A stretch of DNA of 64,000 nucleotides, taken from the NCBI GenBank assembly GCA_964573395.1, contig CAZNJI010000001.1, positions 34,996-98,995 on the forward strand, read 5' to 3'. Source of the DNA: an uncultured Candidatus Saccharibacteria bacterium (GTDB taxonomy: Bacteria > Patescibacteriota > Minisyncoccia > Phycocordibacterales > UBA9973). The translations under genes and the position numbers were made by a program. This document shows positions 718 to 55,162 of the stretch, in pieces (positions within the stretch are counted from its first letter, which is position 1; each line of letters opens with the position of its first letter). The notes below the pieces were generated by a model. That model did not search any database. It was given only the letters and a program-made list of their open reading frames with translations, and was not told the origin of the DNA.

Positions 718-719
718 CT

Positions 720-1346: not shown

Positions 1347-2097
1347 GATTGTTTTTCGCATTGACGATATTGGGGCGTCTACTAAACATTTCAACCAGCA
1401 TGGTAGAAAGCATGTGAAGCTGTTTGGAAAAATCCCACTGTTTTTTCCGTTCGCTAACATAGGGTTCTTTAAAAGAATGGAACCGTTTCGCGGCTGGGCA
1501 AAATACGATGAGGTAACGACGGATGAATGGAAGAAATTTCTGGTAATTTTTTCAGAGCAGAGGATTGTTCCAATTATTGCCATAACGGCGTGCTGGGTTG
1601 AGCGCGACGGAACACTGACGCCGTTCCCCAAGAAGTTTCCGGCGGAAGCAAACTTCTTAAAAAAAGCTTGGCAGGATGGAAAGATTGTTGTCGCAAATCA
1701 TGGGCTAACCCACTGCATCGTTGGAAAGCATCTGCCGAAATTATGGCGATCAAACCGGAAATTCCATCGAGAATTTTTTCCGGAACTTGGTCAGTCTTGG
1801 CATACCGAGCATATCATTAGGTCGCAGGAAATTTTAGAATCTTTCTTCGGAAAACCAGTAGAAATTTTTGTTCCGCCGGGGAATCTGTGGAGTATTAAAA
1901 CATACCAGGCGCTTAAGGGAACAAACATAAAAAAGGTACTGTGCGCGCGAGGACCTTCTGACGGTTCGGTACCTGATGGAGAAATAGAATTTATTGCCGA
2001 TAAAGGGAATAGTATTGCTTTTCATGATCGGGAGTTAAAGCTATATGGAGCTTCCTGGCTCCGGAAGTTGATACAAGGCATCTATGAGCAACAATGA
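1339..2097 (+). CDS. Polysaccharide deacetylase-like protein (DUF2334-like)
   Basis: The N-terminal motif FRIDDIG and the His-containing block ANHGLTHC match the DUF2334/NodB-like fold. The internal Met at 1339 is preferred as the start because the ORF beginning at 1294 overlaps the upstream gene. Confidence 0.55.
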   Translation: MSKIVFRIDDIGASTKHFNQHGRKHVKLFGKIPLFFPFANIGFFKRMEPFRGWAKYDEVTTDEWKKFLVIFSEQRIVPIIAITACWVERDGTLTPFPKKFPAEANFLKKAWQDGKIVVANHGLTHCIVGKHLPKLWRSNRKFHREFFPELGQSWHTEHIIRSQEILESFFGKPVEIFVPPGNLWSIKTYQALKGTNIKKVLCARGPSDGSVPDGEIEFIADKGNSIAFHDRELKLYGASWLRKLIQGIYEQQ

Positions 2098-2932
2098 CCC
2101 TAATATAACTATTTGCGTAGTTTCTCATAATAGTACTGATTTTATCGATGTAATGCTCGCTTCTTTTCGAATACTTACCTGTAATCCTTATAAAGTATTA
2201 ATTCGAGATAATAATTCTACAGAGAAAGAACGTGCAAAGTTGCACAATCTCGCACGGCAACACCATAACGTTTTTGTGTATGACGTACAAACAGAGTTCC
2301 GGGGGAGTCTTGATCATGGCACTGGGCTTAATGATCTTGTTGACCGTATTGATACGCCCTACGGAGTTATCATAGATGCTGATGCAATGTTTCTTGTAAA
2401 AGATTGGGATAAAATGTTACTCGATTGCCTTACTGATGAAATGCCTATTTATGGTACTCAAGCAGATGTGGGAAGCGGAAAACCAGAGGATTTTCCGCTT
2501 ATATTTGCACTAGTGTTTCGTACTGCCACTCTTAAATCTCTACAGATTGATTTTCGCCCCAAAGTTATTCATAACTATCAAGATACAGGATGGGAACTTC
2601 GCGAGAAATACCTTGCAGCAGGATATCAAGGAGGGTTGTTGTATAGTTTCAACACTCGAAATTTTAAAAAAGGACCCTTTGCTTCGGTGGTTTGCACAGA
2701 GTATTACAATACTCCAGATGCAAGTGGCCCTATTATTGCTTCGCATTTTGGCCGAGGAAGCGCACCGCATGCAAAACGGTTAATTAGATTTGGGTCAGGA
2801 CAGAACCTGTTTTACCGCAGTATCAATAAAATTCTCAGATATGCTAATCTTATAAAATGGCGGCGTGACAAGTTGAGATATTTAGCTATTTGCCGGTCTC
2901 TTATTGAGGCGTCCTATGAAAGAAAAGACTGA
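2084..2932 (+). CDS. Glycosyltransferase family 2-like
   Basis: The N-terminal block ITICVVSHNSTDFIDV is followed by DxD-like acidic motifs (IIDADAMF). The gene sits inside a glycosyltransferase operon. Confidence 0.65.
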   Translation: MSNNDPNITICVVSHNSTDFIDVMLASFRILTCNPYKVLIRDNNSTEKERAKLHNLARQHHNVFVYDVQTEFRGSLDHGTGLNDLVDRIDTPYGVIIDADAMFLVKDWDKMLLDCLTDEMPIYGTQADVGSGKPEDFPLIFALVFRTATLKSLQIDFRPKVIHNYQDTGWELREKYLAAGYQGGLLYSFNTRNFKKGPFASVVCTEYYNTPDASGPIIASHFGRGSAPHAKRLIRFGSGQNLFYRSINKILRYANLIKWRRDKLRYLAICRSLIEASYERKD

Positions 2933-3926
2933 ACAACTTAATAAGTGTTTATATTGTCATTCAGAAAACTTCATGCAGCTGTTTGATGCACCTGATCGGT
3001 TTGGACCAAAATCAGAGGAGCGCTTCTGTGTTTGCCAATGTAATAATTGCGGGCTCGTATTTCAAAATCCTCGTGTTCGAGAAGAACATATCGGCCAATA
3101 CTACGGAGATGATATACATTATTTTAACGCTACACCTTTGCAGAAGGTATCAGTTCTTGGGAAGTTAAAATTAGCGATTGAAAAGCAAGTATTGATTGAG
3201 TTTTTCAATTATACTCATCTCGGTCCGAGTTGCGTACTCTTACGGCCATTTCTTTTTATATTTAAGCGTTGGCAGCGCGTACAGATGGTTCCGCGCTTTG
3301 TCCCGGGAGGTAAGTTGCTCGATATTGGATGCTCGCACGGTGCGTACCTTATGCGAATGCGAACACTCGGATGGGAGGTTGTGGGACAAGAGTTACATCA
3401 AAAAAGTGCTGCCTACGCGCAAAGCTTAGGCATTCCTGTCACCGTGAGCAGGATTGAGGATACTGCATTTCCACCAGGGTCATTCGATGTGATTACCATG
3501 GGAATGGTGTTGGAGCATATTTACGATCCATTTTCAGTACTGCGACAGATTACTGGATGGCTCAAACCAGGAGGAACAGTTATTTTTGCCATTCCGTATT
3601 TTAAGGGATTTGAATTTAAGTTCTTTAAGGAGTATGCGTATGGTTTACAGTTACCGTATCATATTACGTTTCTTGATAAAAAAATTATTAAGGAATATTT
3701 ATCCAGCCTAGGGTATCAGACTATTCAAACCTTCTTTCACTTCTTCGACAGGGATATAGCTGCCTCAGCACAGATTAAATATGAGGAACGTGGAGGGATG
3801 TTGTATCGTGCCGTGGGGCATAGCAAGGTAGTAAGAGTGCTGGTTATAAAACCACTGGTGTGGTTTCTCAGTGCTGTAGGCCTTACGAGTCGTATTACGG
3901 TATATGCGCACCATTCAATATTATGA
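2916..3926 (+). CDS. SAM-dependent methyltransferase with N-terminal Cys4 zinc ribbon
   Basis: The pair CLYCHS...CNNCGLVF forms a zinc ribbon. It is followed by the SAM-binding motif LLDIGCSHGAYL and the motif VITMGMVLEHIYDP. Confidence 0.8.
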   Translation: MKEKTEQLNKCLYCHSENFMQLFDAPDRFGPKSEERFCVCQCNNCGLVFQNPRVREEHIGQYYGDDIHYFNATPLQKVSVLGKLKLAIEKQVLIEFFNYTHLGPSCVLLRPFLFIFKRWQRVQMVPRFVPGGKLLDIGCSHGAYLMRMRTLGWEVVGQELHQKSAAYAQSLGIPVTVSRIEDTAFPPGSFDVITMGMVLEHIYDPFSVLRQITGWLKPGGTVIFAIPYFKGFEFKFFKEYAYGLQLPYHITFLDKKIIKEYLSSLGYQTIQTFFHFFDRDIAASAQIKYEERGGMLYRAVGHSKVVRVLVIKPLVWFLSAVGLTSRITVYAHHSIL

Positions 3927-4723
3927 AACCAAAAATCTCAGTTATTATGTCTGTTTATAATGGCGTTCGACACGTGAAAGAGGCAATAAATAGCGTGTTG
4001 CAGCAAACTTTCACAGATTTTGAGTTCCTTATTATTGATGACGCTTCACGTGATGATACTGCATCTCTTTTAGAAGAATATAAAAATCGTGACGGTAGAA
4101 TTAAAATAATTACGAATCAACATAACATCGGGCTTACGAAAAGTTTGAATAAGGGAATTAAAGAATCTCGCGGTGCGTATATTGCTCGATTGGATGCGGA
4201 TGATATTTGTTTGCCAGAACGGTTTGCTAAACAAGTTTCTTTTATGGAAAATCATCCGGTATGTGGCATGACAAGCGTATGGGCAGAGATAATTGATGAT
4301 TCTGGGAATTATAAAAGAACCATTAAGTATCCTACGGAAAATAATAAACTCAAAAAAGCACTAATTCATTACAATCCTTTTTTTCATTCAGGATTACTGG
4401 TTAGAAAAAGCGTATTTGATACCGTAGGATTGTATGATGAGGATTGGAAATTTGCTCAGGACTATGAACTCTATTTTAGAATTTCAAAAAAATTCGATAT
4501 TGCCAACATACCAGAGGTGTTACTGAAGTATCGAGAGAGCGCTCGCTCAGTTACCGGCAGTAAAAATCGAAAACAGATTTCTTTTGTTTTAAGAGCAAAA
4601 CGGAAGGCAATAAGGGATGGGCAGTACGCAAAAATTCATTATTTTTCACTATTTCGGAATTATCTCGCATGGATCTTACCAGTTGCAATGAAGAGATTTT
4701 TGAAGAATCTTTTTAAAATATAA
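3923..4723 (+). CDS. Glycosyltransferase family 2
   Basis: The sequence KISVIMSVYNGVRHVKEAINSVLQQTFTDFEFLIIDDASRDDT is a canonical GT2 N-terminus with the DxD motif ARLDADD. Its start overlaps the upstream stop as ATGA. Confidence 0.85.
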   Translation: MKPKISVIMSVYNGVRHVKEAINSVLQQTFTDFEFLIIDDASRDDTASLLEEYKNRDGRIKIITNQHNIGLTKSLNKGIKESRGAYIARLDADDICLPERFAKQVSFMENHPVCGMTSVWAEIIDDSGNYKRTIKYPTENNKLKKALIHYNPFFHSGLLVRKSVFDTVGLYDEDWKFAQDYELYFRISKKFDIANIPEVLLKYRESARSVTGSKNRKQISFVLRAKRKAIRDGQYAKIHYFSLFRNYLAWILPVAMKRFLKNLFKI

Positions 4724-5838
4724 TGAAAATTTTATACTTTATTACCAAATCAGAGCTTGGAGGGGCGCAGACACATGTGTCCCAGTTGATGGAATACATG
4801 CACAGTCAAGGCCATACGGTGGGGGTGAGTGCGCATCCTGGAGGTCCTCTTGAGCAGCGAGCCCATGAGCTGGGAATAAAATTTTATCCTAATCGTTTCT
4901 TTAGGAATACCTTTAATCCATTAAGTATAGTAAACGCTTTTCGCACCGTTAAAAAAGCCACAAGAGATTTTCAGCCTGAACTCGTCCATGTGCATAGTTC
5001 GATGGCTGGTTTTATTGCTCGGATAGCGATTCGGGGTAAGATCGCTACTATTTTTACAGCACACAGTTGGGCATTTACTGATGGTGTGTCCGTGATGCGA
5101 AAATACATTGCAATCATTGCTGAAAAATGTGCTTCTTATTTTACGAAAAAAATTATTTGCGTATCTGAATTTGATAAACAACTTGCGCTCCGATATCGTG
5201 TTGCACCGTCCGATAAACTTGTCACTATTTATAATGGAGTACAGAGCGTTCAAGAGATTGAGAAGTTGGCTCATACCCCTCTTAGGGCAATTACTGTTGG
5301 GAGATTTGCACACCAAAAAAGGTTTGATTTACTCATTACTGCTATTGCGGCACTTCCAGATTTTTTTAAAAAAAATATTCACCTGAACATTGTTGGTGAT
5401 GGAGAACAAAAACAGATGCTCCTTGATCTGGTTGTAGAAAAAAAACTGACAAAACAAGTTTCTTTTCTCAGTGCTGTTGAAAATACGGAGGTGTTTCAGT
5501 TACTGAATTCTTCTGATATGTTTATTCTTATTTCGAGATATGAAGGATTTCCGATGACCATACTTGAAGCAATGGCTGCAGGAGTGCCAGTCATTGCGTC
5601 TTCTGTTGGAGGTATTCCTGAGGCAATCGATGATACCTGTGGGATTCTTGTTGAAAATACTATCGAAAGTATTGCAACGGCACTTATGAAAATGATTACC
5701 GATAGCGAGCAACGAATTATAATGGGTATTTCCGCAAAGGAACGGTTTGAAAAATTGTTTTCACTAAAACAATGTTTAAAAAATACTGAAGCTGTGTATG
5801 ATGAAGTGCGTTTAGATAGTACGAGCCGACTTCCGTAA
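4723..5838 (+). CDS. Glycosyltransferase family 4 (GT1 fold)
   Basis: The N-terminus MKILYFITKSELGGAQTHV and the C-terminal motif EGFPMTILEAMAAGVPVIASSVGGIPE are both typical of GT4. Confidence 0.85.
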   Translation: MKILYFITKSELGGAQTHVSQLMEYMHSQGHTVGVSAHPGGPLEQRAHELGIKFYPNRFFRNTFNPLSIVNAFRTVKKATRDFQPELVHVHSSMAGFIARIAIRGKIATIFTAHSWAFTDGVSVMRKYIAIIAEKCASYFTKKIICVSEFDKQLALRYRVAPSDKLVTIYNGVQSVQEIEKLAHTPLRAITVGRFAHQKRFDLLITAIAALPDFFKKNIHLNIVGDGEQKQMLLDLVVEKKLTKQVSFLSAVENTEVFQLLNSSDMFILISRYEGFPMTILEAMAAGVPVIASSVGGIPEAIDDTCGILVENTIESIATALMKMITDSEQRIIMGISAKERFEKLFSLKQCLKNTEAVYDEVRLDSTSRLP

Positions 5839-7263
5839 TTCAAGAATGGTGTAGTCTCTGAGTACAAAAAGAATACCAATGTAAAGCAGTCCTGAGAGGG
5901 GAATAATGAGAAGGAGCGGGGCAGATAGTGTGGTCATTGCATAAGTGAATACAGCCATTCCGATTACTGCGAGCAGGCTTCTGTAGAACTTTTTTGCAAT
6001 AGGTACTTTTTGAGTCTTTCTCATTTCAACATAGAACACCGTATTGACTGCCATTTGTGCAATAACGGTCGCGATCGCCGACCCGACGATACCGTATAGA
6101 GGAATAAGGACAAAATTAAGGCCAACGTTTAATAACGCGCCTATTATCCCTGTGGTAATAAATATTCGTTGTTTATTTTCTACTAGCAATACTTCTGCAT
6201 AAATGGTTCCAGGGAATGTAAAGAATATGGTAAGAAGAAGTACTTGAAAGGTGGAAACAGCACCGGCATATTCAGCGCCAAAAACAACACTGATCAATGG
6301 TCCAGCAACAATAATACCGCCGATGACAAAAGGGAGCGCAACGGTAAGTGATGCTGAAGAAGCAATGCCGATCATCGGAGCGAGAGATTTCCCTTCTTTG
6401 GCGAATCGGCTCAATATGGGAAGTAATGATGCACTAAGGAAATTTGGAAGAATGTACAGAATATTAAGCGGGCGCTGTGCTGCGCCATAGAGTCCGAGCA
6501 TGTGTTCGTTGCCGAATATGCCAATAATGACTGAATCAATGTTGGTCATAAAGATGCCGAATATGCCAAGAATGGCAAAGGGAAGCGTCATTTTTGCAAG
6601 CGGCATGAGGAGTGACCAATTAATGTGTTGTGCTATGCCGAATATGTAGCGGCGTATTGAAAAGAGCGCAATAATAAGTCCCACGCCGTTTCCAATCATA
6701 AATGACAGTGCAAGGGAGTACGGGGAAGGGTTTTGCAGAAAAAACCCCACAATGAGGATGGTGCAGAGAAATTCATTGACGATGCTGATACCTGCTTCTG
6801 CTTCCATTTTGCTCTGCGCTCGAGGAATCGAATAAAAGAATCCTCGAAGGCTTTCAAAAATAACTGATAGACTGATAATCAGCATGATTGATGTCGCTGC
6901 TTCAAAGTGAGAAACAAATGGCGCAAGTCCAACCACTAGGAGAAGCATCGCGCACAAGAGAATAAGTTTGATCACAAGTGCAGTTGAGAAATATTCCTTC
7001 ATTCGCTCGGTATGTTTTGATAACTCTCTGATAAGGATACTCGAGATACCCATGTCGGAAACCACAGCGAATATCGCAACAACGCTCATGGCATAGGTAA
7101 AAATACCGTAGGATTCAGTACCGAGGAGGCGGGCAGCGTAAATAATAATGACCGCTCGCACTATTTTAATAAGTGTCGTACTTGCTCCCATCCAGAACGT
7201 GTTTTTCAAAATGGTTTGCCGAGTGGTGGTATTTTTGAAGAGAAATTTCCTAAGGCGATTCAT
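5812..7263 (-). CDS. Wzx-like polysaccharide/oligosaccharide flippase (MOP superfamily)
   Basis: This is a 483-aa polytopic membrane protein with about 12-14 hydrophobic segments. It sits in a glycan cluster next to a priming sugar transferase. Its 3' end overlaps the convergent GT4 gene by 27 nt. Confidence 0.8.
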   Translation of the reverse strand: MNRLRKFLFKNTTTRQTILKNTFWMGASTTLIKIVRAVIIIYAARLLGTESYGIFTYAMSVVAIFAVVSDMGISSILIRELSKHTERMKEYFSTALVIKLILLCAMLLLVVGLAPFVSHFEAATSIMLIISLSVIFESLRGFFYSIPRAQSKMEAEAGISIVNEFLCTILIVGFFLQNPSPYSLALSFMIGNGVGLIIALFSIRRYIFGIAQHINWSLLMPLAKMTLPFAILGIFGIFMTNIDSVIIGIFGNEHMLGLYGAAQRPLNILYILPNFLSASLLPILSRFAKEGKSLAPMIGIASSASLTVALPFVIGGIIVAGPLISVVFGAEYAGAVSTFQVLLLTIFFTFPGTIYAEVLLVENKQRIFITTGIIGALLNVGLNFVLIPLYGIVGSAIATVIAQMAVNTVFYVEMRKTQKVPIAKKFYRSLLAVIGMAVFTYAMTTLSAPLLLIIPLSGLLYIGILFVLRDYTILELRKSARTI

Positions 7264-7270
7264 AAAGCAA

Positions 7271-8572
7271 TTAGTGAGTAAAAATTATTTGGATTGTTTT
7301 TAGAAAAATACCAACATCGAGCAGTGGGGTACGGTTGAGAAGGTAGTAAAGGTCATACTCAAATTTTTCCCGAGAATCATCGACGGTTCTTGCGTATCTG
7401 AATTTAATTTGCGCCCAGCCAGTAAAGCCCGGCCGAATCGTATGTCGCAAAAAATAATACGGAATTTCTTTTTCAAGATTGGTAACAATTTCTGGCCGTT
7501 CAGGGCGGGGTCCTACCAGAGCGATATCTCCTTTTATGATGTTAATCATCTGCGGAATCTCATCGATGTGCAGCTTGCGAATAATCCGGCCGACTCGCGT
7601 CACTCGAGGATCCTTCTTTTCTGCCCATTGAATACCGTCCTTCTCGGCATTGTGAACCATCGATCGGAGTTTGTAGAGCGCAAAATGCTTCCCAACTCTT
7701 CCGATGCGGACTTGACGGTACAGTATTGGTTGGCCATCTTCAAGCATGATAGCAATCATAGAGAGCAGTAAAACCGGAGAAGCGATGATTAGTACAAAAA
7801 GTGCAACACCTATTTCAATTATCCGGGTAATAAGCGTAACTCCAGCATTGACACGATGCGTAACGACGTGAATTGCTTTTTCGTCGGTCATTAAGCTGAC
7901 GGGGATTTTTCCGAAGAGGGTTTCGTAGGCTTCGCCGAGCGAAAACGGTTCAGTGCTTAGTTCTTTTGAAAGACGTAAAAGCGTTTCGGCCGGGAGCTTC
8001 TCTGCAATAAGAATATCAACTGATGGCTGTTCGGTAATTGTTTCGATGGTATCGGACGGTATGTGAAACATAATTTTTCCAAAATGCGGATGAGTTTTTA
8101 ACTCAGTAATCAAATGATCGATAAGCGGATTTTGGCCGATGACCCCAATTGTTTGGTGTAAAGTAGAAGTGAACATGCTGTAAAAAAGTCGACGCCATGC
8201 AACCAGCAGCAAAAATGCAAAGCCACTTAAAATAGCAAGGTTTGTTTTCGGCGTAATGCCGTTCTGAGGAAAAAAATAAAAGAGAGCTACTGCAAGTCCG
8301 CCGTTTACCACTAGTGCTGCAAGGAGGAGTCCGATATTCCGAGGGTTTGGATTTACCCTGCGCAGGTTATAGAGATCGAAAATAAAAAATATTCCAATCC
8401 AGACAGTAAAAATAACGGCAAAGATGCCTGCCTGGAGTTTGATGTAGGGCAACTCAGATCCGTAATCAAACCGAATCAATGTCATTATGAAAAAAGCACC
8501 TGCCAGTACGAGGATATCACCTAGCAAAAGCAGTGTCTGCCGGTTTTTTACCATAAAAACATTATATAACAT
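7271..8572 (-). CDS. Polyprenyl-phosphate sugar phosphotransferase (bacterial sugar transferase, WbaP/EpsL family)
   Basis: The C-terminal catalytic domain carries [46 protein letters not shown] and FTGWAQI. The N-terminus has several transmembrane helices. Confidence 0.9.
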
Positions 8573-8636
8573 TTTTTATTTTTGTAAAATATTTGTTTCC
8601 TTGCGAAAGAAGCAGAGATGGATAGAATAGGGGAAT

Positions 8637-9125
8637 ATGGAACAGAATAATGGAAAAGAGAATGGGGCAGTATCCTCTGTTATGAATAACAAGAATCTTT
8701 GGATATCGGCTCTGGCGGTTATTTTGGTTATTTTAGTCATTGCGCTGCCGAAAGGGCAAAAGGGAAGCGAAGTATCGGAATTAACAGAAGGAGATACCTC
8801 CACTTCTTTGGTTGAAGAAGTAGAAACTACTGCACAGCTTCCGGTTGCGCCTGGCACCCAGACGCGCGCGGAAGCACGAGTTGCCTACGAAGGAAAGAAG
8901 ATTACGGTAACCGGCGCATGCGACATTGCTCCGGAAACTCAAACCCTGCCGCTTCGCACCATTATTATGGTTGATAACGACAGCGACGCGGCTCATACGG
9001 TTACCGTAGGAGCGAAGAGCTATCCGATTAAGTCAAAGTACTACCGCCTGTCATTGATTGATACTCCAGGAGAAATTGTTGTTACCTGCGATGGCGTAGA
9101 GAAAGCAACGATTACCGTTCAGTAA
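8637..9125 (+). CDS. Hypothetical secreted or membrane-anchored protein
   Basis: The N-terminus has a hydrophobic segment LWISALAVILVILVIAL. No recognisable catalytic motif is present. Confidence 0.55.
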   Translation: MEQNNGKENGAVSSVMNNKNLWISALAVILVILVIALPKGQKGSEVSELTEGDTSTSLVEEVETTAQLPVAPGTQTRAEARVAYEGKKITVTGACDIAPETQTLPLRTIIMVDNDSDAAHTVTVGAKSYPIKSKYYRLSLIDTPGEIVVTCDGVEKATITVQ

Positions 9126-9200
9126 TAGGGTGTAACATTGAAAAAACATCTCCACCACTGGGGATGTTTTTCTTTTGGGAACGGAGTACACTTTCTATAT

Positions 9201-9617
9201 ATGATCGATATAGTATTAGTGCTTATCATTGCGATTATTTTTAACGTGCTTGGGTTCGTGTGGTACGGTCCGCTCTTTGGCAAAAAGTGGGGCAACATTA
9301 TTGGCATGCCGCCGGCAAGCCAGATGACGCCTGAGGCAAACAAAGAATTCCAGAAACGAATGATACCGGTCTATATCTTAAACTTTGTGCTTTCAGTGGT
9401 AACCGCGGTTGTCATGGTTCGCTTTACGGGCGCCGGACACAGTGGCGTGTTTATTGTGCTGTTCATGATTTGGCTCGGGTTTATTATGCCGCTTGAAGCG
9501 GGAGCTGCCATGTGGAGCGGGAAGCCGCGCGCCGTTGCCTGGGAAATGTTTTGGCTCAGTGCGGGTTTTCAGTTCGTTGTTTTTGCGCTTGCTGGAGTGG
9601 TGCTGAGCATCTGGTAG
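9201..9617 (+). CDS. DUF1761-like small membrane protein
   Basis: The motif VLGFVWYGPLFGKKWGNIIGMPP matches the DUF1761 pattern. There are 3-4 transmembrane helices. The start codon is uncertain; the ORF opens at 9138. Confidence 0.55.
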   Translation: MIDIVLVLIIAIIFNVLGFVWYGPLFGKKWGNIIGMPPASQMTPEANKEFQKRMIPVYILNFVLSVVTAVVMVRFTGAGHSGVFIVLFMIWLGFIMPLEAGAAMWSGKPRAVAWEMFWLSAGFQFVVFALAGVVLSIW

Positions 9618-9632
9618 TTTCATACCAGAAAC

Positions 9633-9657
9633 CTCCGCCAGAAAGGCGGGGTTTTGC
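9633..9657 (+). terminator. Rho-independent terminator
   Basis: The stem CCGCC-agaaa-GGCGG is followed by GGTTTTG. Confidence 0.6.
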
Positions 9658-9859
9658 GCTTAAAGGAAACGTGTGGTAGAGTAATTCTCGTGTAGATCAG
9701 AGACAGCAGGTATCCTTACGGGGATTTAAAAGCCCTAAACCAAAAGCCTTGCTTTTGGTCGGGCGAACGGCAAAGCCGTTCTAGCCTGCCGAGGTCAAAC
9801 TCTATTTTTCTACGCCGTTACCTAAACATAGGTAGCGTGATTTATTTAACAATTTCAAT
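9658..9859 (+). promoter_or_regulatory. Structured leader upstream of rplJ (candidate L10 autoregulatory leader)
   Basis: A 200-nt untranslated region carries several hairpins, for example accaaaagcc/ttgcttttggt and gaacggcaaagccgttc, immediately upstream of rplJ. It sits where ribosomal-protein L10 leaders are found in most bacteria. Confidence 0.3.
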
Positions 9860-10348
9860 ATGGCAATTTCAAAAGATAAGAAAAAAGATATTGTAAAAAC
9901 TTTTGAAGAGCTCGTCGGCGGAGCAGAGTCAATTGCATTCGTGCAGTTCTCTCGCCTTGCCGTTCTAGATGCAAACAAGCTTCGTCGCTCGCTCCAGGCA
10001 GCGGGTGTCGGGTACAAAGTAGGGAAGAAAACACTTCTCAAGCGGGTACTCGAAGCACGGGGATATACCGGAACACTTCCGGAACTCCCGGGGGAGATTG
10101 CAATTGCATACGGAACCGATCCGCTTGCTCCTGCACGAGAAGTGCATGCGTTCTCTGAAGCGCATAAGGGCATCGTATCGATTGTGGGTGGCGTCTTTGA
10201 AGGTGGTTACAAAAATCAGGAAGAAATGATGGCGATTGCAACCATCCCAAGCATGCAAGTGCTTCGCGGTATGTTTGTCAATATTATCAATTCTCCAATA
10301 CAGCGTTTTGCAATTGCGCTGAATCAAATTGCAGAAAAGAAAGCTTAA
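9860..10348 (+). CDS. rplJ: 50S ribosomal protein L10
   Basis: The N-terminus MAISKDKKKDIVKTFEELVGGAESIAFVQFSRLAVLDANKLRRSLQAAGVGYKVGKKTLLKR is characteristic of L10, and the gene is followed by L7/L12. Confidence 0.95.
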   Translation: MAISKDKKKDIVKTFEELVGGAESIAFVQFSRLAVLDANKLRRSLQAAGVGYKVGKKTLLKRVLEARGYTGTLPELPGEIAIAYGTDPLAPAREVHAFSEAHKGIVSIVGGVFEGGYKNQEEMMAIATIPSMQVLRGMFVNIINSPIQRFAIALNQIAEKKA

Positions 10349-10361
10349 TTAACATAATGGT

Positions 10362-10757
10362 ATGGATGAAAATAAAACAGTAGAAGTTCCTGCAAAATTC
10401 AAAGACATCGTTGAGAAAATTGAAGGTCTTAGTGTGCTTGAATTGCATGAGCTCGTAAAAGTATTTGAAGAAAAATTCGGCGTTTCAGCTGCTGCAGTTG
10501 CGGCAGCTCCGGCGGCCGGCGGTGCAGCTGGTGCAGCAGAAGAGAAAGACAGCTTTACCGTAGTCCTTGCCTCTGCAGGCGACGCAAAAATCGGCGTCAT
10601 GAAGGTGGTGAAGGAAGCGCTTGGTCTTGGCTTGAAAGAAGCAAAAGATCTTGTTGATGGCGCTCCGGCAACGCTTAAAGAAGGCATGAAGAAAGAAGAA
10701 GCAGAAGCGCTCAAAAAAGCTGTTGAAGAAGCAGGTGGTAAGATTGAACTGAAATAA
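10362..10757 (+). CDS. rplL: 50S ribosomal protein L7/L12
   Basis: An Ala-rich hinge is followed by the C-terminal motif [33 protein letters not shown]...KIELK. Confidence 0.95.
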
Positions 10758-10779
10758 ACGGAGCCTATGCTTACATAAA

Positions 10780-10808
10780 AACAACCCCAGTGTTCGGGGT
10801 TGTTTTTA
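10780..10808 (+). terminator. Rho-independent terminator after rplL
   Basis: The stem AACAACCCC-agtgttc-GGGGTTGTT is followed by TTTATT. Confidence 0.7.
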
Positions 10809-10855
10809 TTTGACAAAACTGCGCGGTCAGGTAGGTTTAACTAAAAATACCGCAT

Positions 10856-11374
10856 ATGAAGCAAGCAAACACTGTTTTTTCAAACACTCTTTTAGAAGAA
10901 AGCATACGAGCAGCCTTGGCTGCGCACAAAGATTTCGGCATTGTCCTGGAACTTTTAACAGAATCTCTCCGGGGTGATCAATCCGAACGAGTGAGAATTC
11001 TCTCGAAATACAAAACCCAGGAAGAAACCGCCTACCAGGCCACTCTTCAGATGCTTAAGGGAAGAATAGGGGTTCTCTTTTTTTCCACGGTCCGTTCAGA
11101 ACTTGAACCGTTGCTGGGAAGCAAGCATCTGATGCTCTTAGATCCAATGGTTCACTACGGCAAAAGCCGGACACTGCGGGAACATCTGGTAGATGCTCTC
11201 GGCAGGGTTCTCTCCGGAGAGTTGCCTGAAAAATGCTTCAGATTAAAACCTGAAGCTGCACGCCTTGAAACTGGCATCTACGGCCTCACACAAAAATTGG
11301 AAGCAGTTGGAATAGATTTTTCTTTTTCCGTAAGCGAAGAATGTGTTAGCATTGAAATCAAACCACTAAAATAG
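10856..11374 (+). CDS. Hypothetical protein
   Basis: This is a 172-aa ORF with no motif I recognise. Its coding-like composition is similar to its neighbours. Confidence 0.55.
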   Translation: MKQANTVFSNTLLEESIRAALAAHKDFGIVLELLTESLRGDQSERVRILSKYKTQEETAYQATLQMLKGRIGVLFFSTVRSELEPLLGSKHLMLLDPMVHYGKSRTLREHLVDALGRVLSGELPEKCFRLKPEAARLETGIYGLTQKLEAVGIDFSFSVSEECVSIEIKPLK

Positions 11375-11618
11375 CACCGCGTATGTTTAAAATTCCGTTC
11401 TTCAGAATTGCAGCCGTACACATGCTGACTGCAGTACCGCCCAAAGGATTACAGAATCCTTACTTGAAAAAAGTATTTTTTCTTTCATCATCACGGAAAA
11501 AATTCCGCCCCCAAATAGGTGATCGAAGATAAACCGTTTTACCGCCCAGGCTTTCCATAAAGCCTGGGTATTTTTTTTGACACCGGTTCCATCTCGGGAT
11601 AGAGTGAGAAAAAAATCT

Positions 11619-11756
11619 ATGAAAATCAAATCTTCGAGGAATCTTCTGAACATTGTCGGGTTCATTCTGGTAGTTGTCGTGCTATTGTCCGTCTGTAAAA
11701 AACCAGTTCCAAAACAACCACAAAAAGCGGAAACACAAAAAAGCGCCTCAAGGTAA
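11619..11756 (+). CDS. Small ORF (45 aa) with signal/lipoprotein-like N-terminus
   Basis: The translation is MKIKSSRNLLNIVGFILVVVVLLSVCKKPVPKQPQKAETQKSASR. The ORF is flanked by a hairpin plus T-run upstream (11545-11578) and downstream (11771-11798). It is below the cutoff of the ORF track. Confidence 0.3.
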   Translation: MKIKSSRNLLNIVGFILVVVVLLSVCKKPVPKQPQKAETQKSASR

Positions 11757-11854
11757 GTTTTTACCGAAAGCCGTGTCTAAAACGACACGGTTTTTTTCTT
11801 GGCGCAAGTGCCCTTAAATGATTTATAATCAAAGCATTAAGGAAGAGAGAACTG

Positions 11855-12493
11855 ATGGAAATTCTGGGGAAACTACTAGGCGGAATATCGAGAGTAAAGG
11901 TAATGCGGCTTTTTCTGCTCAACCCGAATCAAGGGTTTGAAATCGGCGACATCGTCGAGCGATCGCGCCTGCAGCCCTCAACGGCCCGCCGATCGATTAC
12001 CCAGCTTGCCGGAATGGATTTCGTCAGAAGAAGGTCATTCATTAAAGAAACGATTGATGGTAGAAACGGGGCAGCCAAGCGCAAGCGCACGCAAGGATGG
12101 TTTTTAAATCAGGAATTTCCGTATCTCACGGAATTGAAGACGCTCCTCGTTGAAGGAGAATTCTTCAAGCGCGAAGACTTGGTGAAGCGTTTCAAGCCCG
12201 CCGGAAAAATCCATCTGCTGATTGTTTCGGGTATCTTCATCCAGAACAGCGAAAGCAGGCTTGATGTCATGATTGTTGGCGATAATTTAAGGCGTGCGTA
12301 TATCCAAAAGGCGATTTCTATGCTCGAAAGCGAGCTCGGGAAAGAGGTTGCCTATGCCGTGTTCGATACGGCCGACTTCAAGTACCGCATTTCGATGTAT
12401 GACAAGCTGATTCGGGACGTTCTTGACTACCCGCATGAGCAACTGTTGGTGGCAAAGGATTTTTCCACACTACTCCTCCCGAACGAGCGCTAA
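11855..12493 (+). CDS. Hypothetical protein (possible N-terminal winged-helix)
   Basis: This is a 212-aa ORF. The N-terminal segment ISRVKVMRLFLLNPNQGFEIGDIVERSRLQPSTARRSITQLAGMDFV looks like a winged helix-turn-helix. Confidence 0.6.
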   Translation: MEILGKLLGGISRVKVMRLFLLNPNQGFEIGDIVERSRLQPSTARRSITQLAGMDFVRRRSFIKETIDGRNGAAKRKRTQGWFLNQEFPYLTELKTLLVEGEFFKREDLVKRFKPAGKIHLLIVSGIFIQNSESRLDVMIVGDNLRRAYIQKAISMLESELGKEVAYAVFDTADFKYRISMYDKLIRDVLDYPHEQLLVAKDFSTLLLPNER

Positions 12494-12608
12494 AATGATA
12501 TAATAAAAACAATACTTTAAAGGCCACACGTTAAAGTAGGCTCTATTACTGGCTAGAGGTGTGTGCGATACGCTACAGTGGGGAAACCCACTTACGCGTA
12601 CAGTTTTT

Positions 12609-13298
12609 ATGCTTATACAAACATGGGGCGATGTCTTTGCGACATCACTGCAGGGATTGTGGTACGGCTTCATTACAACCGTTCCAACAATTCTCGTTGC
12701 AGTCATTATATTCATTATTGGTTGGCTAGTAGGCTCAACGCTCTCAAAAGCGATTGCGCACTTAATTGATGCGCTGAAACTCGACCGCCTCTTCAAGAGT
12801 GCAGGCGCAGATGAAGTGTTTGCTCGCGCTGGATGGAAGTTCAACGTGGGGAGGTTTTTGGGTGAGATCGTAAAGTGGTTCGTGGTTATCGTATTCCTTA
12901 CCGCTTCACTTGATCTGTTGGGATTGAACCAAGTAAATGTATTCCTTCGCGAAGTAGTGCTCGGATATCTGCCACAGGTATTCATCGCAGCGCTCATGCT
13001 CGTGATCGGAACTGTCGTTGCTTCGATCGTTCGCCGATTGGTGATGGGTTCAGCGGCAATGGCAAATGTTCGCTCAGCGCGCATGCTCGGTTCAGTTGCA
13101 TACTACGCAATCTGGATTTTCACTATCTTGATTGCGCTCAATGAACTGGGCATTGCGCCTCAGTTCATGCAGATTCTCTTCGGTGGTATCGTCGCACTCT
13201 TGGCTATTGCCGGCGGTATTGCATTTGGGCTCGGTGGCAAGGAAGCAGCAGGCCGTTTTGTGAATCGCATCTCTGATGACATGTCGTCACGAAGCTAA
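12609..13298 (+). CDS. Membrane protein with repeated conserved TM-helix motifs (MscS-associated type)
   Basis: There are several hydrophobic helices with the repeated pattern ...LDLLGLNQVNVFLREVVLGYLPQVFIAALMLVIG.../...LNELGIAPQFMQILFGGIVALLAIAG.... The start is uncertain; the ORF opens at 12561. Confidence 0.55.
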   Translation: MLIQTWGDVFATSLQGLWYGFITTVPTILVAVIIFIIGWLVGSTLSKAIAHLIDALKLDRLFKSAGADEVFARAGWKFNVGRFLGEIVKWFVVIVFLTASLDLLGLNQVNVFLREVVLGYLPQVFIAALMLVIGTVVASIVRRLVMGSAAMANVRSARMLGSVAYYAIWIFTILIALNELGIAPQFMQILFGGIVALLAIAGGIAFGLGGKEAAGRFVNRISDDMSSRS

Positions 13299-13317
13299 CC
13301 GCTTCTTGGTTTTTTCA

Positions 13318-13346
13318 AAAACACCCTTTATTTAAGGGTGTTTTTG
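13318..13346 (+). terminator. Rho-independent terminator
   Basis: The stem AAAACACCCTT-tattta-AGGGTGTTTT is followed by a T-run. Confidence 0.65.
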
Positions 13347-13385
13347 GTTCTTCCTTCCATAAAAGGACGACTTAGGGAGCAATGC

Positions 13386-13414
13386 TTGACAGACGATTTA
13401 TTTTCGTATAAACT
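13386..13414 (+). promoter_or_regulatory. Candidate sigma70-type promoter for the 23S-5S rRNA unit
   Basis: A TTGACA hexamer at 13386-13391 is followed, after a 15-17-nt spacer, by TATAAACT at 13407-13414. The promoter lies about 250 nt upstream of the 23S processing stem. Confidence 0.5.
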
Positions 13415-14172
13415 CGTTCCACTTATATGTTTACTCGAGAAACCACTATAAAAAATAGGCCGTAAGACCATTTTTTTGTGGGTGCGGCCGCCGAAAGGCG
13501 GCCTTTCTCGTGGAAAGCAGATAAGGTGCGTGATCGTTGAAAACAGAACCCTATCCTTCGGAGTGTGCATGAGTAATGCAGACAGCAGGCTGAAGAGATA
13601 GCGTGAGGGTCGGATTCCGAGCGGTCGGATGAAGGCCCGAAATGATTTCTAGATTTCCTAATAGGAAATTTAAGAGCATACGGTGGATGCCTTGGTTCAA
13701 AATGGCGATGAAAGACGCGGCTTAGCGGCGATACGCTTCGGGGAGGTGCTATGCAACCTACGATCCGGAGATCTCTGAATGAGGAAACTCATATCGATAG
13801 ACTCGATATACCTGAACTCGTAAGTAGTACAGGAGCAAACCTGGGGAAGTGAAACATCTCAGTACCCAGAGGAAAAGAAAACAATGAGCGCGGATGCGTT
13901 CGAATTCCCTCAGTAGCGGCGAGCGAAAAGGGAACAGCCCAAACCGTTTTGTGCTTGCACGAAGCGGGGTTGTAAGGTAATGGCGTCGTTTTACGAAAAG
14001 AGTTAACAAATGTGTGTATAGAAGAAGTTGTTGGAAACCAACACCACAGCGGGTGATAGTCCCGTATTCGAAATGCACTACATCTCTTCTGTCATTATTC
14101 TTGAGTACTCCAGGACACGGATAGCCTGGAGGAATCCACCAGTACTAACTGGTAAGGCTAAATACATTTTGA

Positions 14173-14214
<42 letters not shown>

Positions 14215-14792
14215 GTCCGAAAGGACAGTGAAATAGACCTGAAACCGTATGTTTACAAGGAGTCGGCGCGGAGATTTATCTCCGCCACGGCGTGCCTATT
14301 GAAGAATGAGCCAACGAGTTTATGTGTGCGGCTCGGCTAAGTCGTAAAGCGATGGAGCCAGAGCGAAAGCAAGTGTGAATAGCGCGTAATTGGTCGTACA
14401 CATAAGACCCGAAGCCAGGTGAGCTACCCATGAGCAGGGTGAAGGCGCAAGAAATTGCGCTGGAGGCCCGAACCGGTTTGTCGTACAACGCATTCGGATG
14501 ACTTGTGGGTTGGAGTGAAAAGCTAATCGAACCTGGTAATAGCTGGTTCTCTCCGAAATAGCTTTTGGGCTAGCGTCATGTGTTCCTCTTGGGGGTAGAG
14601 CACTGGAAGGTTTCGACAGGGAGCAATCTCGCGAAACCTATCAAACTCCGAATACCAATGACTAAAAACGTGGCAGTTAGACTACGGGGGCGAAGCTCCG
14701 TCAGTCAAAAGGGAAACAGCCCATGATCGCCGATTAAGGTCCCTAAATCAATACTAAGTGCACTCAAGGAGGTGGAATTTCTCAGACAATGA

Positions 14793-14824
<32 letters not shown>

Positions 14825-14903
14825 GAAAGCGTAACAGCTCACTCATCAAGAGATCTTGCGCCGTAGATAATCGGGGCTTAAGTGTATTACCGAAATTGAG
14901 GGT

Positions 14904-15236
14904 TTGTAGATTTCATAAAGGAAGTGGAAACTTCCAAAAATTCTTGCACTGTCTTGCCAGTGCAATACGTATCATAGCGATGAGCAGTTAGTTGGGTTTT
15001 GGGATATATGCAAAATGCAGCTGGTGCTTTGTGAGGATAAGAAGTAAGACACCTTATTGCTCTAAAGCAAAAAAACATCATCCGATAACGTATTGCCTGG
15101 CCCGAATTACGTGAATTTGGAAATTGTGTAAGATTGGTTCTTTCTGGTAGCGATTTCGCTATCAGATATTACAGGGGAAGATAAAAATCGATTGTTTGGT
15201 TTCGAACATCTTCCCCTCCTTTATGAAGTCTACAAG
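14904..15236 (+). other. Stem-closed intervening sequence (IVS or expansion) replacing 23S helix 45 (E. coli about 1164-1185)
   Basis: The flanks align to E. coli CACCGAAGCUGCGG and GGUAGGGGAGCGUUCUG. The insert is bounded by the complementary arms TTGTAGATTTCATAAAGGAAG (14904-14924) and CCTCCTTTATGAAGTCTACAAG (15216-15236). It is about 333 nt long and has no convincing ORF. Confidence 0.65.
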
Positions 15237-15981
15237 CGGTAGGAGAGTATTCTGCTCTCGCTGTGAAGGTTAAGGGGTGACCCGTACTGGAGCGTGCAGA
15301 AGTAAGAATGTTGGCACAAGTAACCGCAAGCAGGGTGAGATCCCCTGCCGCCGAAACACTAAGGTTTCCTGGGCAATGGTGATCATCCCAGGGTTAGTCG
15401 GGTCCTAAGGTAATGACGAAAGTCGCAGCCGATGGACATATGGTTAATATTCCATAACTTCTTTGTTATTCGATGAAGGGACGGAGCGTAGTACATGCAG
15501 CGGATTATTGGATTTCCGTGCACGTGTCGCACATGCTGGGTAGGAAAATCCGCCCGGCTCACTTGAATGTGGAATGCCAGATACGGGCCGTGCCGAGGTA
15601 CGCCAAAGCGAAGTGCATGGAGCAGGCTCCCAAGAAAAGCTTCTAAGATTAGTAACAAAGAACCCGTACCGTAAACCGACACAGGTAGTGAGGTCGAGTA
15701 GACCAAGGCGAACGAGTGAGAGATCCCCAAGGAACTCGGCAAAAAAGCAGCCGTAACTTCGGGATAAGGCTTGCCCTTCTCTACGCAAGTAGAGCGGGGC
15801 CGCAGCGAAAGTATTCCTGGCAACTGTTTATCAAAAACACAGCTCCCTGCGAACTCGTAAGAGTATGTATAGGGGGTGACACCTGACCAATGCCAGAAGG
15901 TTAACTATCGGCGGTATTCAGCACCGAGTCCGGAAAGAAATTTCCTGACCCCGTGCTGAATGCAGATTGATACAAGCCCTG

Positions 15982-16046
<65 letters not shown>

Positions 16047-16679
16047 GCGCACGAATGGTGTAATGACTGGGAAACTGTCTCGGGGATTTGCTCGGTGAAA
16101 ATACAATACCGGTGAAGATGCCGGTTACCTGCAGTTAGACGAAAAGACCCCGGAAGCTTTACTACAGCTTGGGATTGGGTATGTTTGTTTATTGCGTAGC
16201 ATAGGAGGGAGACGTTGAAGCACCGCTTTCGGGTCGTGCAGAGTCGCCAGTGAAATACCTCTCTGTAAATGGGCATATTCTAACCCGTACGGCAAAAACG
16301 TGCGGGAACAGTTCCTGGCGGGTAGTTTTACTGGGGCGGTATCCTCCAAAAGAGTAACGGAGGAGTTTATAAAGGTTAGCTAGGCGCGAATGGAAACCGT
16401 GCCGATAGTGCAATGGCATAAGCTGGCTTGACTGTAAGGGGGACATCCCGAGCAGGTGCGAAAGCAGAACATAGTGAACCGACGGTCCGCATTAGATGCG
16501 GCCGAAGATTAACGGATAGAAGCTACTCCGGGGATAACAGGCTAGTTCCGCCTAAGAGTTCATATCGACGGCGGAGTTCGGCACCTCGATGTCGGCTCAC
16601 CTTATCCTGGGGCCGGAGAAGGTCCCAAAGGTTTGGCTGTTCGCCAATTAAAAAGGTACGCGAGCTGGGTTCAGACCGT

Positions 16680-17114
16680 CCTGAGGCTTAATATTGTTTA
16701 CAATATTGGCCGAAAGACCGTCTGAATCCCGAGGCATCACGACAAAAAAGAATTTTAAGAATTCACGGAATAATTTAGAAAAGATATGTTTTAGTCTTTT
16801 CGTCTATGAAAAAGATAATATAAAAAGAGACCATCTTATTACGGCGGTCGCCATTGGCAACAATGGATGACATGCTCAACTGATATCGGGAAAGCCCAGC
16901 TGTAGTTTCATTAAAAACTACGGCTGGGTAATTCCGAGGGAAGGTGAATCAGTTAGTAGTAAGTCGTTAGTAGTTAGTAGAAAAAGCAATTGCAATTTCC
17001 TACTTACTACTTTCTACTACCTACTTGCTCGTTCCCGCCCGTAGAGACTAATTGTTGAGGCACTCTCTGAGTGCAAGTTATAGTCCAATCCACTTAGTAA
17101 TAAGTGAAAAGATG
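16680..17114 (+). ncRNA. Group I intron in 23S rRNA at the site equivalent to E. coli U2593 (the I-CreI/Cr.LSU site); no ORF
   Basis: The exon flanks gggttcagaccgt | cgtaagacaggttggtc align to E. coli GGGUUUAGAACGU|CGUGAGACAGUUCGG, so the 5' exon ends in U and the intron ends in G. An R element GTAGAGACTAA lies at 17041-17051 and an S element AAGTTATAGTCC at 17075-17086; these form P7. A P/Q pair ATCGGGAAAGCCCAGC / GGCTGGGTAA forms P4. GGCGGTC at about 16847 can act as an internal guide sequence pairing with exon GACCGU through a U-G wobble. The boundary is precise to within 2 nt. Confidence 0.8.
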
Positions 17115-17470
17115 CGTAAGACAGGTTGGTCTCCTATCTACTGCAGGCGTTGATACTTGAGGAGATTCGTTTCTAGTACGAGAGGACCGAAATGAACGAA
17201 CCTCTGGTGTATGGGCTCTTTCGCCAGAAGGACCGCCCAGTAGCTATGTTCGGAATGGATAACCACTGAAAGCATCTAAGTGGGAAGCCAGCTCCAAGAT
17301 TAGGTATCGTTGAGGGCCCTAGGAGATGACTAGGTTGATAGGCATTACGTGGAAGCGCAGCAATGCGTTGAGCGGAGATGTACTAATTGCCCGACTCCTA
17401 TTAGGAAATCTGGAAATCACATGAACACGCAAAACGTTATAGCAATATGACACAGAGTACCTTGAGTGCT

Positions 17471-17585
17471 CTGTGTTGGTGATTCGTCGCAGGGGTCACA
17501 CCTCTTCCCATTTCGAACAGAGAAGTTAAGCCCTGTAGAGCCGATGGTACTTTTTTTAAGGGAGAGTAGGCAGTCGCCAGCACAG
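17471..17585 (+). rRNA. rrf: 5S rRNA
   Basis: Helix I pairs CTGTGTTGGTG with CGCCAGCACAG. The conserved internal blocks CCCATTTCGAACAGAGAAGTTAAGCC and GAGAGTAGG are present. The gene lies 60 nt downstream of the 23S end. Confidence 0.85.
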
Positions 17586-55138: not shown

Positions 55139-55162
55139 CAAAAATTTATTACAATTTAGTTT

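Follow-up and report, generated by a model that had tools for sequence, protein, structure and literature searches.

A group I intron without an open reading frame at site U2593 of a Patescibacteria 23S rRNA gene, with a conserved P1-loop domain predicted to pair with the 5' exon

Insertions in the ribosomal RNA (rRNA) genes of the Candidate Phyla Radiation (CPR) were surveyed by Tsurumaki et al. (2024, J Bacteriol; PMC11270868), and the passages of that survey drawn on here give the closest context for the element described below. Position 2593 of the 23S rRNA is designated site 23IS12; LAGLIDADG_1 genes are found mainly at 2593 and at five other 23S sites, and shorter copies without an open reading frame (ORF) occur at intron-bearing sites, scattered over the host phylogeny. 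Rfam was used for detection, with 45% of the 23S insertions called group I, and in the introduction, an earlier metagenome study of groundwater is cited for the removal of CPR rRNA insertions from their transcripts. Cyanobacterial introns at U2593 carry a ~65-nt P7.1/P7.2 extension, always together with an endonuclease gene (PMC1995217). Here, we analyzed an insert in the 23S rRNA gene of a 64-kb stretch of contig CAZNJI010000001.1 (64,000 nt, hereafter “the window”), for which a preliminary description made from the sequence alone had proposed an ORF-less group I intron at this same site. The best overall explanation, which we hold to be very probable, is an ORF-less U2593 group I intron whose P1 loop holds a conserved, exon-pairing RNA domain.

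The position of the insert was established by aligning the E. coli 23S rRNA to the window gene with 16680-17114 taken out. The flanks joined without a gap (E. coli GGGTTTAGAACGT followed by CGTGAGACAG, window GGGTTCAGACCGT followed by CGTAAGACAG), which bears out the interruption by 435 nt as well as the claim that its removal restores conserved 23S sequence. The break falls after position 2595 of the E. coli copy used; this copy has two extra homopolymer bases upstream, and the break therefore corresponds to standard U2593, i.e., the I-CreI-type site that had been named. According to the Rfam structure line, the insertion point lies inside the stem of helix 93, beside its GNRA loop, and the Rfam alignment places an unaligned insert, 437 nt by its own count, at LSU model positions 2622/2623. 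One base of the boundary is ambiguous, as a C could sit on either side of the insert; we settled the ends at 16680 and 17114 by the rule that places U at the end of the 5' exon and G at the end of the intron, in agreement with the preliminary description. The ligated junction is found in nature: its 37-mer occurs, exact and uninterrupted, in 37 metagenome contigs, and one of these contigs (L130; Ga0099790_1041729, 705-1687) is intron-less at U2593 and 93.3% identical to the window 23S over 985 nt. Excision therefore recreates a natural gene, and intron-less relatives exist. Overall, the presence of the U2593 intron varies among fairly close relatives.

All family counts given below rest on a sample of at least 120 loci, taken from GTDB species genomes with the pattern ATAGTC N{10,40} G CGTRAGACAGNTNGGTC. 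The listed loci belong mostly to metagenome-assembled genomes (MAGs) of Patescibacteria, Parcubacteria and Saccharibacteria, with some from Acidimicrobiaceae, Omnitrophota and others, and some of the MAG labels (Gammaproteobacteria, archaeon) may be binning errors. A same-site insert of 213-835 nt was present in all 110 listed loci with both junctions locatable. The G before the 3' exon was a selection criterion of this sample, so that family conservation of the terminal G (omega-G) is uninformative.

From 29 compact cores of other species, with the window excluded, we built a structure-blind MAFFT alignment (A1), on which RNAalifold recovered P2, P3, P4, P5, P6, P8 and P9; P7 was added as a pseudoknot before pair counting, the P3/P7 pseudoknot being present in the family structure. 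Across the 47 pairs, 94.1% of cells were paired, versus 35-40% when partners were slid by 1-3 columns. Both-sided changes were observed at 34 pairs, and the covariation score reached 0.549 versus ~0.09, with 0/500 shuffles as high. Covarying helices included P2, P3, P5, P6, P8 and P9, while P4 and P7 were invariant. A covariance model made from A1, again without the window (R1), gave one match only in the 64-kb window, at 16838-17114 on the + strand and over the full model length, with a score of 124.3 bits (E 8e-29, a rough value owing to a shortened calibration). Of the positions that are invariant or near-invariant in the 48 best family members, the window intron retains 34/34 and 23/26, respectively, and one of the three departures is a compensating change in P10. 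In addition, the compact relative L061 clears the cut-off of the Rfam group I model RF00028 (Intron_gpI) with 52.3 bits (E 9e-13). Because of the 124-bit match to R1, the covariation of the core helices and the position of L061 above the Rfam cut-off, the window insert is securely assigned as a group I intron at U2593, as had been proposed. It belongs to a large U2593 family with a compact core running from P2 to P9, without P5abc and without P7.1/P7.2.

The individual core elements are listed in Table 1. They include the R and S elements and the P/Q pair to which the preliminary description had ascribed P7 and P4, respectively, and all of these were located. P7 is formed by G-A(bulge)-GACUA with UAGUCC, is invariant in 29/29 family sequences and resembles the P7 of Tetrahymena (CAGACUA/UAGUCG). 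The guide, which had been placed at GGCGGTC, pairs with both exons: UUACG-GCGGUC is the antisense of the ligated GACCGU-CGUAA except for the obligatory G opposite U2593. Its 11-nt form TTACGRCGGTC occurs once in the window versus 0.03 occurrences expected by chance, and the motif ACGGCGG is conserved in 70 family members among the listed loci. P10 covaries with the fourth position of the 3' exon, with CGUA exons associated with UACG in 5/6 cases and CGUG exons mostly with CACG; the window guide follows the A2597 of its host by a compensating change.

Table 1. Coordinates of the 23S-5S locus, the U2593 intron and its pairing elements in the window
Feature	Position	Strand	Evidence or remark
Bacterial 23S rRNA gene	13658-17406	+	Rfam LSU_rRNA_bacteria, 2355 bits
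5' exon segment GGGUUCAGAC	16667-16676	+	E. coli 2581-2590, positions -13 to -4; pairs with anti-exon block
P1, 5' exon strand GACCGU	16674-16679	+	ends in U2593; pairs with GCGGUC 16844-16849, U.G wobble at splice site
Intron, 435 nt	16680-17114	+	E. coli 23S alignment, Rfam alignment, family model R1
HP1 hairpin, from intron +1	16680-16716	+	apical stem 16690-16696 with 16701-16707; fold; +1 to +4 covary with pre-linker bases
Linker ACC (consensus ACA)	16717-16719	+	opposite exon -1 to -3, middle base facing the conserved -3 mismatch
Anti-exon block GUCUGAAUCC	16720-16729	+	complementary to exon -13 to -4, 10 bp
Conserved CGAGG motif after anti-exon block	16730-16734	+	family alignment
Conserved accessory block GUUUUAGUCUUUUCGUCUAUGAAAAAG	16788-16814	+	motif UUUUCGUYU...AAA; 90-93% identity to L071/L028, 86% to L094
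Conserved pre-guide block GAGACCAUC	16827-16835	+	consensus GACAUC / AACCAAUC
P10 part of guide, UUACG	16839-16843	+	pairs with 3' exon CGUAA
Internal guide sequence GCGGUC	16844-16849	+	intron strand of P1
P2 hairpin	16851-16866	+	GNRA loop GCAA 16857-16860; 9/9 pairs covary in family
P3, 5' strand	16875-16880	+	partner 17054-17059; double changes at 6/6 pairs
P4	16886-16891 with 16932-16937	+	encloses P5; whole unit 16886-16937
P5 hairpin	16894-16908 with 16915-16929	+	
P6 with ORF-less hairpin extension	16938-17036	+	fold z -4.5
R element GTAGAGACTAA	17041-17051	+	J6/7 and P7 5' strand GAGACUA 17044-17050, bulged A 17045; invariant 29/29
P3, 3' strand	17054-17059	+	
P8 hairpin	17060-17074	+	5/5 pairs covary
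S element AAGTTATAGTCC	17075-17086	+	J8/7 and P7 3' strand UAGUCC 17081-17086
P9 hairpin	17091-17106	+	GNRA loop GUAA 17097-17100; 5/6 pairs covary
Terminal G (omega-G)	17114	+	R1 match stops exactly there
P10, 3' exon strand CGUAA	17115-17119	+	E. coli 2594-2598, A replacing G2597
5S rRNA gene	17475-17582		Rfam scan

In the window intron, 164 nt separate the 5' splice site from the guide downstream, a displacement that we attribute to the P1 loop holding a conserved RNA domain and not gene debris. About 60 listed family members share the same 5' plan, in which HP1 begins at +1 and is followed by a linker, a CUGAAYCC block, a GAGG-like motif, optional blocks (UUUUCGUYU...AAA, GAUAG), an (A)CAAUCAAAUC or GACAUC block and finally the guide ACG-GCGG, with P1 loops ranging from 5 to 250 nt across the family. 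Under a longer definition, the linker reads ACAGU in the consensus and ACCGU in the window. Two short forms, L084 and L090, lack both HP1 and a pairing linker while retaining the anti-exon block. Inspection revealed no pairing partners for the GAGG and GACAUC motifs, which are conserved.

The anti-exon block is complementary to the 5' exon upstream of the P1 target, and this complementarity is widespread. Exon positions -13 to -6 are paired 8/8 in 48 of 68 introns, whereas shuffled loops reach this in 5 cases on average and in 10 at most, and positions -12 to -5 are paired 8/8 in 58 of the 68. The signal vanishes with targets shifted toward the splice site, and permuting the exon labels yields a mean of 36 and a maximum of 42 fully paired introns (500 trials) versus the 48 observed. 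Intron blocks also follow the variants of their exons: exons in ...CAG are matched by CUG... (n=41), ...CAA by UUG... (n=14), ...UAG by CUA... (4/4) and ...AAA by UUU... (1/1). To resolve single positions, we used a fixed-register alignment (A3, 56 rows) in which the motif was located by consensus similarity and not by complementarity. Position -6 (column 8/35) holds 43 GC, 12 AU and 1 GU pairs, position -8 (column 6/37) 54 CG and 2 UA, and position -11 43 G.U and 13 G-C. Nearer the splice site, position -3 is unpaired in 49/56 rows, -2 is paired in 54/56 and -1 in 52/56 (U-A 46, U.G 6), and on the intron side five standard pair types are found at +1 and six at +2. The frequent G.U wobble argues for selection acting on the sense RNA. 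As judged from these sequence comparisons, the complementarity between anti-exon block and exon is not due to chance and comprises both pairing and covariation.

Other resemblances within the P1 loop were considered and not retained. An internal GACCGUC (16716-16722), a candidate decoy exon for the guide, is not conserved in relatives, and pairing of CAUCUU (16832-16837) with the intron 3' end AAGAUG is absent in L064 and others and was treated as a coincidence. The segment AAUCCCGAGG (16725-16734) closely matches the P4'/P6 strand AAUUCCGAGG (16930-16939), with both motifs conserved in the family, and could pair with the P4 5' strand UCGGGA, while UUAGUCU (16791-16797) complements the P7 5' strand. 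A role for these two segments as decoys or as parts of a nested second intron was not adopted, as UUAGUCU is absent in most of the family and R1 finds no second core. Lastly, the block UUAGUCUUUUCGUCUAUGAAAAAGAUA (16791-16817) is 74% identical, ungapped, to 23S helix 92 (A-loop; 16632-16658), 159 nt upstream. This similarity could be chance in U-rich sequence or a mimic; an exon-duplication origin is not claimed, given the 74% identity in U-rich sequence and a pre-guide block that ignores exon variants.

The anti-exon design recurs at a second rRNA site. R1 also matches many other introns in the family loci, and chaining of BLAST segments against the E. coli 23S located further insertions near positions 1917-1931, 1951, 2260, 2500 and 2600. 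Among the 16 insertions mapped at 1930-1932, nine contain, ~32-44 nt from the intron start, a stretch of 8-14 nt (11-14 nt in eight of them) that is antisense to the insertion's own exon, versus shuffled means of 7-8 nt. In these U1931 introns, HP1 starts at +1; a linker of five bases leads to the anti-exon block, after which come variable sequence and the guide GCU-ACCU. Compensation between exon and intron is seen in the combinations UAUAACGGUCCUA with UAGGACUGUUAUA, UAUAAUCGUCCUA with UGGGACGAUUAUA and CUAUAAUCGUUCUA with UGGAACGAUUAUGG (exon first). Their linkers (AGGAC, CGGAC, AUGAC) have no complementarity to the last four exon bases, AGGU, which are left for the guide; the anti-exon helix must therefore coexist with P1 at this site. 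U1931 and U2593 introns with this design occur in the same genomes. As a separate observation, the guide GCU-ACCU, present in most of L096, L029, L095, L022, L014 and L047, places an A-U pair at the 5' splice site and not the canonical G.U, and the guide of the U1931 intron of L063 has GCCU.

The preliminary description had stated that the insert lacks a homing-endonuclease ORF, and we concur: the longest frame, located inside the P1 loop, has 58 aa and no Pfam match, and tblastn of the ORFs of 39 relatives against the window intron gave no significant match, the sole one below E 0.01 being nucleotide-level core homology with L064. It had also suggested that the AT-rich 164 nt between splice site and guide might be a decayed homing-endonuclease gene in the P1 loop. 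The stretch is indeed AT-rich, with a GC content of 0.23-0.40 across 16690-16840, it contains the longest ORF of the insert, and some group I introns do carry P1-loop ORFs. However, the endonuclease gene of the relatives lies elsewhere. In 12/12 LAGLIDADG-bearing relatives with the same guide type (among those listed), the frame opens at the P4'/P6 strand or shortly ahead of it, the LAGLIDADG motif comes after P6 and the frame ends at J6/7; the endonuclease gene therefore fills the P6 loop. With the P1-loop blocks conserved across dozens of species, one of them covarying with the exon, and with the tblastn and Pfam searches devoid of matches, a decayed gene in the P1 loop is scarcely credible, and this part of the preliminary description was dropped.

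The protein of one of the relatives (L040) matches Pfam LAGLIDADG_1 (E 2e-11) and, over its full length, the solved structures of I-CreI (E ~1e-20), I-MsoI (~1e-16) and I-CvuI (~1e-13), which are enzymes of the U2593 site. Where these relatives have the LAGLIDADG gene, the P6 loop of the window intron is a 90-nt imperfect hairpin of UAGUAG/CUACUA repeats. Full anti-exon pairing was found in 5/12 endonuclease-bearing versus 53/58 ORF-less introns. The nearest relative among those listed, L064, has an 81-aa ORF in its P6 loop (~369-614), with no credible Pfam match and not LAGLIDADG-like. Long terminal-loop hairpins of short repeats, in which the 5' arm is rich in purines and the 3' arm in pyrimidines, are frequent in the family; examples are 16946-17034 in the window and HP1, L6 and L8 of L064, L019, L013, L034, L075 and L094, the repeats of L064 being AAGUU.

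Several points weigh against the overall explanation of an intron with an exon-pairing P1-loop domain. A covariance-model check against Rfam, put forward in the preliminary description, turned out as claimed only in part: RF00028 does match the insert (16782-17107, 601-nt scan), yet with 23.3 bits (E 9e-4), below the cut-off of 50. The intron was not reported in the whole-window Rfam scan at the gathering threshold, and RF00028 at its curated cut-off gave no match in four relatives (L028, L011, L032, L004). The alignment to RF00028 nonetheless spans the entire core of the window intron. Rfam under-detects the U2593 family, and standard annotation would leave such inserts unclassified. Beyond the anti-exon block, the rest of the P1 loop (16730-16843) does not fold significantly by itself (z -0.2). 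The association of long P1 loops with gene loss, i.e., a median of 30 nt in introns with an endonuclease gene versus 124.5 nt in ORF-less ones (70 listed introns, Mann-Whitney p 4e-5), comes from a test that ignores phylogeny. Removal of the window intron by the standard two-step, guanosine-initiated reaction, on which any splicing role depends, is itself a prediction from its sequence.

The anti-exon hairpin could also serve purely as a mask or timing switch, another point on the opposing side. Exon positions -13 to -1 and the start of the intron would then hide the 5' splice site, and the hairpin would have to melt, at least from -6 to -1, before P1 forms, delaying splicing until core folding or ribosome assembly had progressed. 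Folding of window segment 16667-16729 gives one hairpin, with an energy of -30.1 kcal/mol (z -6.9), that has the splice site within its helix. The high pairing frequencies at -1 (with A or G) and -2 and the start of HP1 at +1 without a spacer fit this alternative, as does the ability of the U2593 linker to pair with exon -1, -2, -4 and -5, which yields a continuous hairpin that buries the splice site (U-A) and competes with P1. Taken alone, the U2593 data are equally compatible with masking. At U1931, however, the linker leaves the last four exon bases, and thus the splice site, unmasked while the helix is still kept, the short forms L084 and L090 carry the block with neither HP1 nor a pairing linker, and the mismatch conserved at -3 weakens the mask at U2593 itself. 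The U1931 arrangement and the short forms favour coexistence of the anti-exon helix with P1 over masking, and we regard a pure mask as rather unlikely.

Under the preferred explanation of coexistence, the 5' exon would be recognized in two parts, by the anti-exon block and then by the guide. The block would bind exon sequence upstream of the P1 target, ~8-10 nt of it in U2593 introns and 11-14 nt in U1931 introns, and, since it is transcribed ~40 nt after the exon, the anti-exon helix could form first. The later-transcribed guide would take the last 4-6 exon bases, in U2593 introns by displacing a linker weakened by the -3 mismatch, and UUACG-GCGGUC would align both exons through P1, with its U.G wobble, and P10. 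This would place the anti-exon helix, P1 and HP1 in a stack along an uninterrupted exon-intron strand. The anti-exon helix may serve as a second exon-binding site that keeps the 5' exon held throughout splicing, and the stack would retain the cleaved 5' exon for the second step. As the domain is well developed mainly in introns without an endonuclease gene, it may replace a protein helper; the protein of a Thermotoga 23S intron is reported to act in a maturase-like way (PMC3984707), and the data hint that the P1-loop RNA domain stands in for such a helper. Extending this to a class of introns, we tentatively propose, with somewhat less than even confidence, that the U2593 and U1931 CPR introns represent an undescribed group I variant. 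Specifically, a P1-loop domain would provide a second exon-binding sequence of 8-14 nt and a two-strand hold on the 5' exon, with the guide fitting between the anti-exon helix and HP1, and in ORF-less copies this domain would replace maturase help or aid endonuclease-free spread.

The same extended antisense (10-nt anti-exon block plus 6-nt guide) might instead serve reverse splicing into U2593 of intron-less 23S rRNA, and such RNA-level mobility would explain how ORF-less copies persist and spread free of an endonuclease. Consistent with this alternative, the domain is enriched in ORF-less introns, intron presence or absence varies among relatives at 93% 23S identity, and related cores occur at two rRNA sites, each with site-specific antisense. 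Reverse splicing normally uses only 4-6 bases of complementarity (PMC3984707). Forward splicing accounts for the same pairing, and a reverse-splicing role, which we consider improbable, would be compatible with the two-part recognition of the exon outlined above.

The window 23S is 93% identical to that of a Candidatus Paceibacterota MAG (L064), with other Patescibacteria as the next-best matches, and from this sequence the host is a Paceibacterota-like member of the CPR/Patescibacteria, in line with the CPR-type host previously proposed. An Rfam scan found no 16S rRNA gene in the 13.6 kb upstream of the 23S-5S pair (window 1-13657), and a single tRNA (Ser-GGA, 55052-55139) is found in the 64 kb, which suggests an unlinked rRNA arrangement. 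Beyond the intron, the 23S gene contains a second insertion of ~330 nt (14902-15237), at E. coli ~1163-1185 in the helix 45 region, which folds as one closed structure with a closing stem of ~20 bp (minimum free energy -133 kcal/mol, z -8.6) and has no ORF >64 aa and no match to R1. Its appearance is that of an intervening sequence or expansion segment, not of an intron, and it fits the description of an RNase III-type intervening sequence (simple long closing stem, no ribozyme core). Two smaller insertions relative to E. coli lie at 13948-13999 (52 nt, near 276) and 15932-15966 (35 nt, near 1881).

Given this non-intron insertion in the same gene, the U2593 insert might likewise be a dead intron or intervening sequence, retained in the 23S or excised by RNase without ligation so that the rRNA is fragmented; a title cited in PMC11270868 reports a 23S group I intron of Simkania that is not spliced. 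The window insert nevertheless has all invariant core positions intact, a guide that matches both exons perfectly, including the A2597 compensation, and a site inside helix 93, next to the peptidyl-transferase center, and we consider a dead or merely fragmenting insert highly improbable. An RNase III-type intervening sequence, with its long closing stem and location in helix 9, 25 or 45, was rejected as an identity for it, the insert having a covarying ribozyme core and lying in helix 93.

Compared with known systems, the nearest are the 23IS12 introns of the CPR survey, at the same site and in the same bacterial radiation, of which the window intron would be one ORF-less copy; the survey's 45% rate of group I calls fits the sub-threshold Rfam score obtained here (PMC11270868, in the passages covered). 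The window intron itself is thus an already catalogued type of CPR intron. Secondary structure, a displaced guide and an exon-pairing P1-loop domain are not described in those passages, and a limited literature search, which is weak evidence of novelty, found no description of a second exon-binding site, displaced guide or P1-loop domain in group I introns. The exon-pairing P1-loop domain is the part worth attention, its novelty being uncertain. In practical terms, a U2593 intron breaks 23S primers and models and is missed by Rfam at the curated threshold, and a family model such as R1 would recover many unclassified CPR rRNA insertions. A helix covarying at two independent rRNA sites implies that these introns recognize ~13-18 nt of the 5' exon versus the usual 4-6, which bears on how a ribozyme can splice dependably within an rRNA that is still folding in chaperone-poor cells, on how introns survive the loss of an endonuclease or maturase, and on the engineering of longer guides into trans-splicing ribozymes.

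The Chlamydomonas Cr.LSU intron, which encodes I-CreI, and the Synechococcus and Thermosynechococcus U2593 introns occupy the same rRNA site (Haugen et al. 2007, PMC1995217), and the P6-loop genes of the window intron's relatives encode single-motif LAGLIDADG enzymes like I-CreI and I-MsoI. Unlike these IA3-like introns, the window intron has just 3 nt (AUU, 17051-17053) between P7 and P3' and no P7.1/P7.2, and it differs from the cyanobacterial ones in having no ORF and a 164-nt P1 loop. It resembles the IC3 introns of Azoarcus and Anabaena tRNA genes in its minimal core: P5abc is missing, P2 is a hairpin, and both P2 and P9 are capped by GNRA loops. These tRNA introns sit in anticodon loops and have short P1 loops. 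In group II introns, two intron segments (EBS1 and EBS2) pair with adjacent stretches of the 5' exon (IBS1 and IBS2); the parallel with the anti-exon block and guide is one of analogy only, between ribozymes of different class and chemistry and without homology. Woodson and Cech reportedly described, in Tetrahymena pre-rRNA, a competitor of P1 in the form of an alternative hairpin of the 5' exon, and both systems have a 5'-exon helix that excludes P1 for the last exon bases. In Tetrahymena, however, the competitor is exon sequence, whereas in the window it is a conserved intron segment in the P1 loop, with the pairing at -13 to -6, most of the helix, not overlapping P1.

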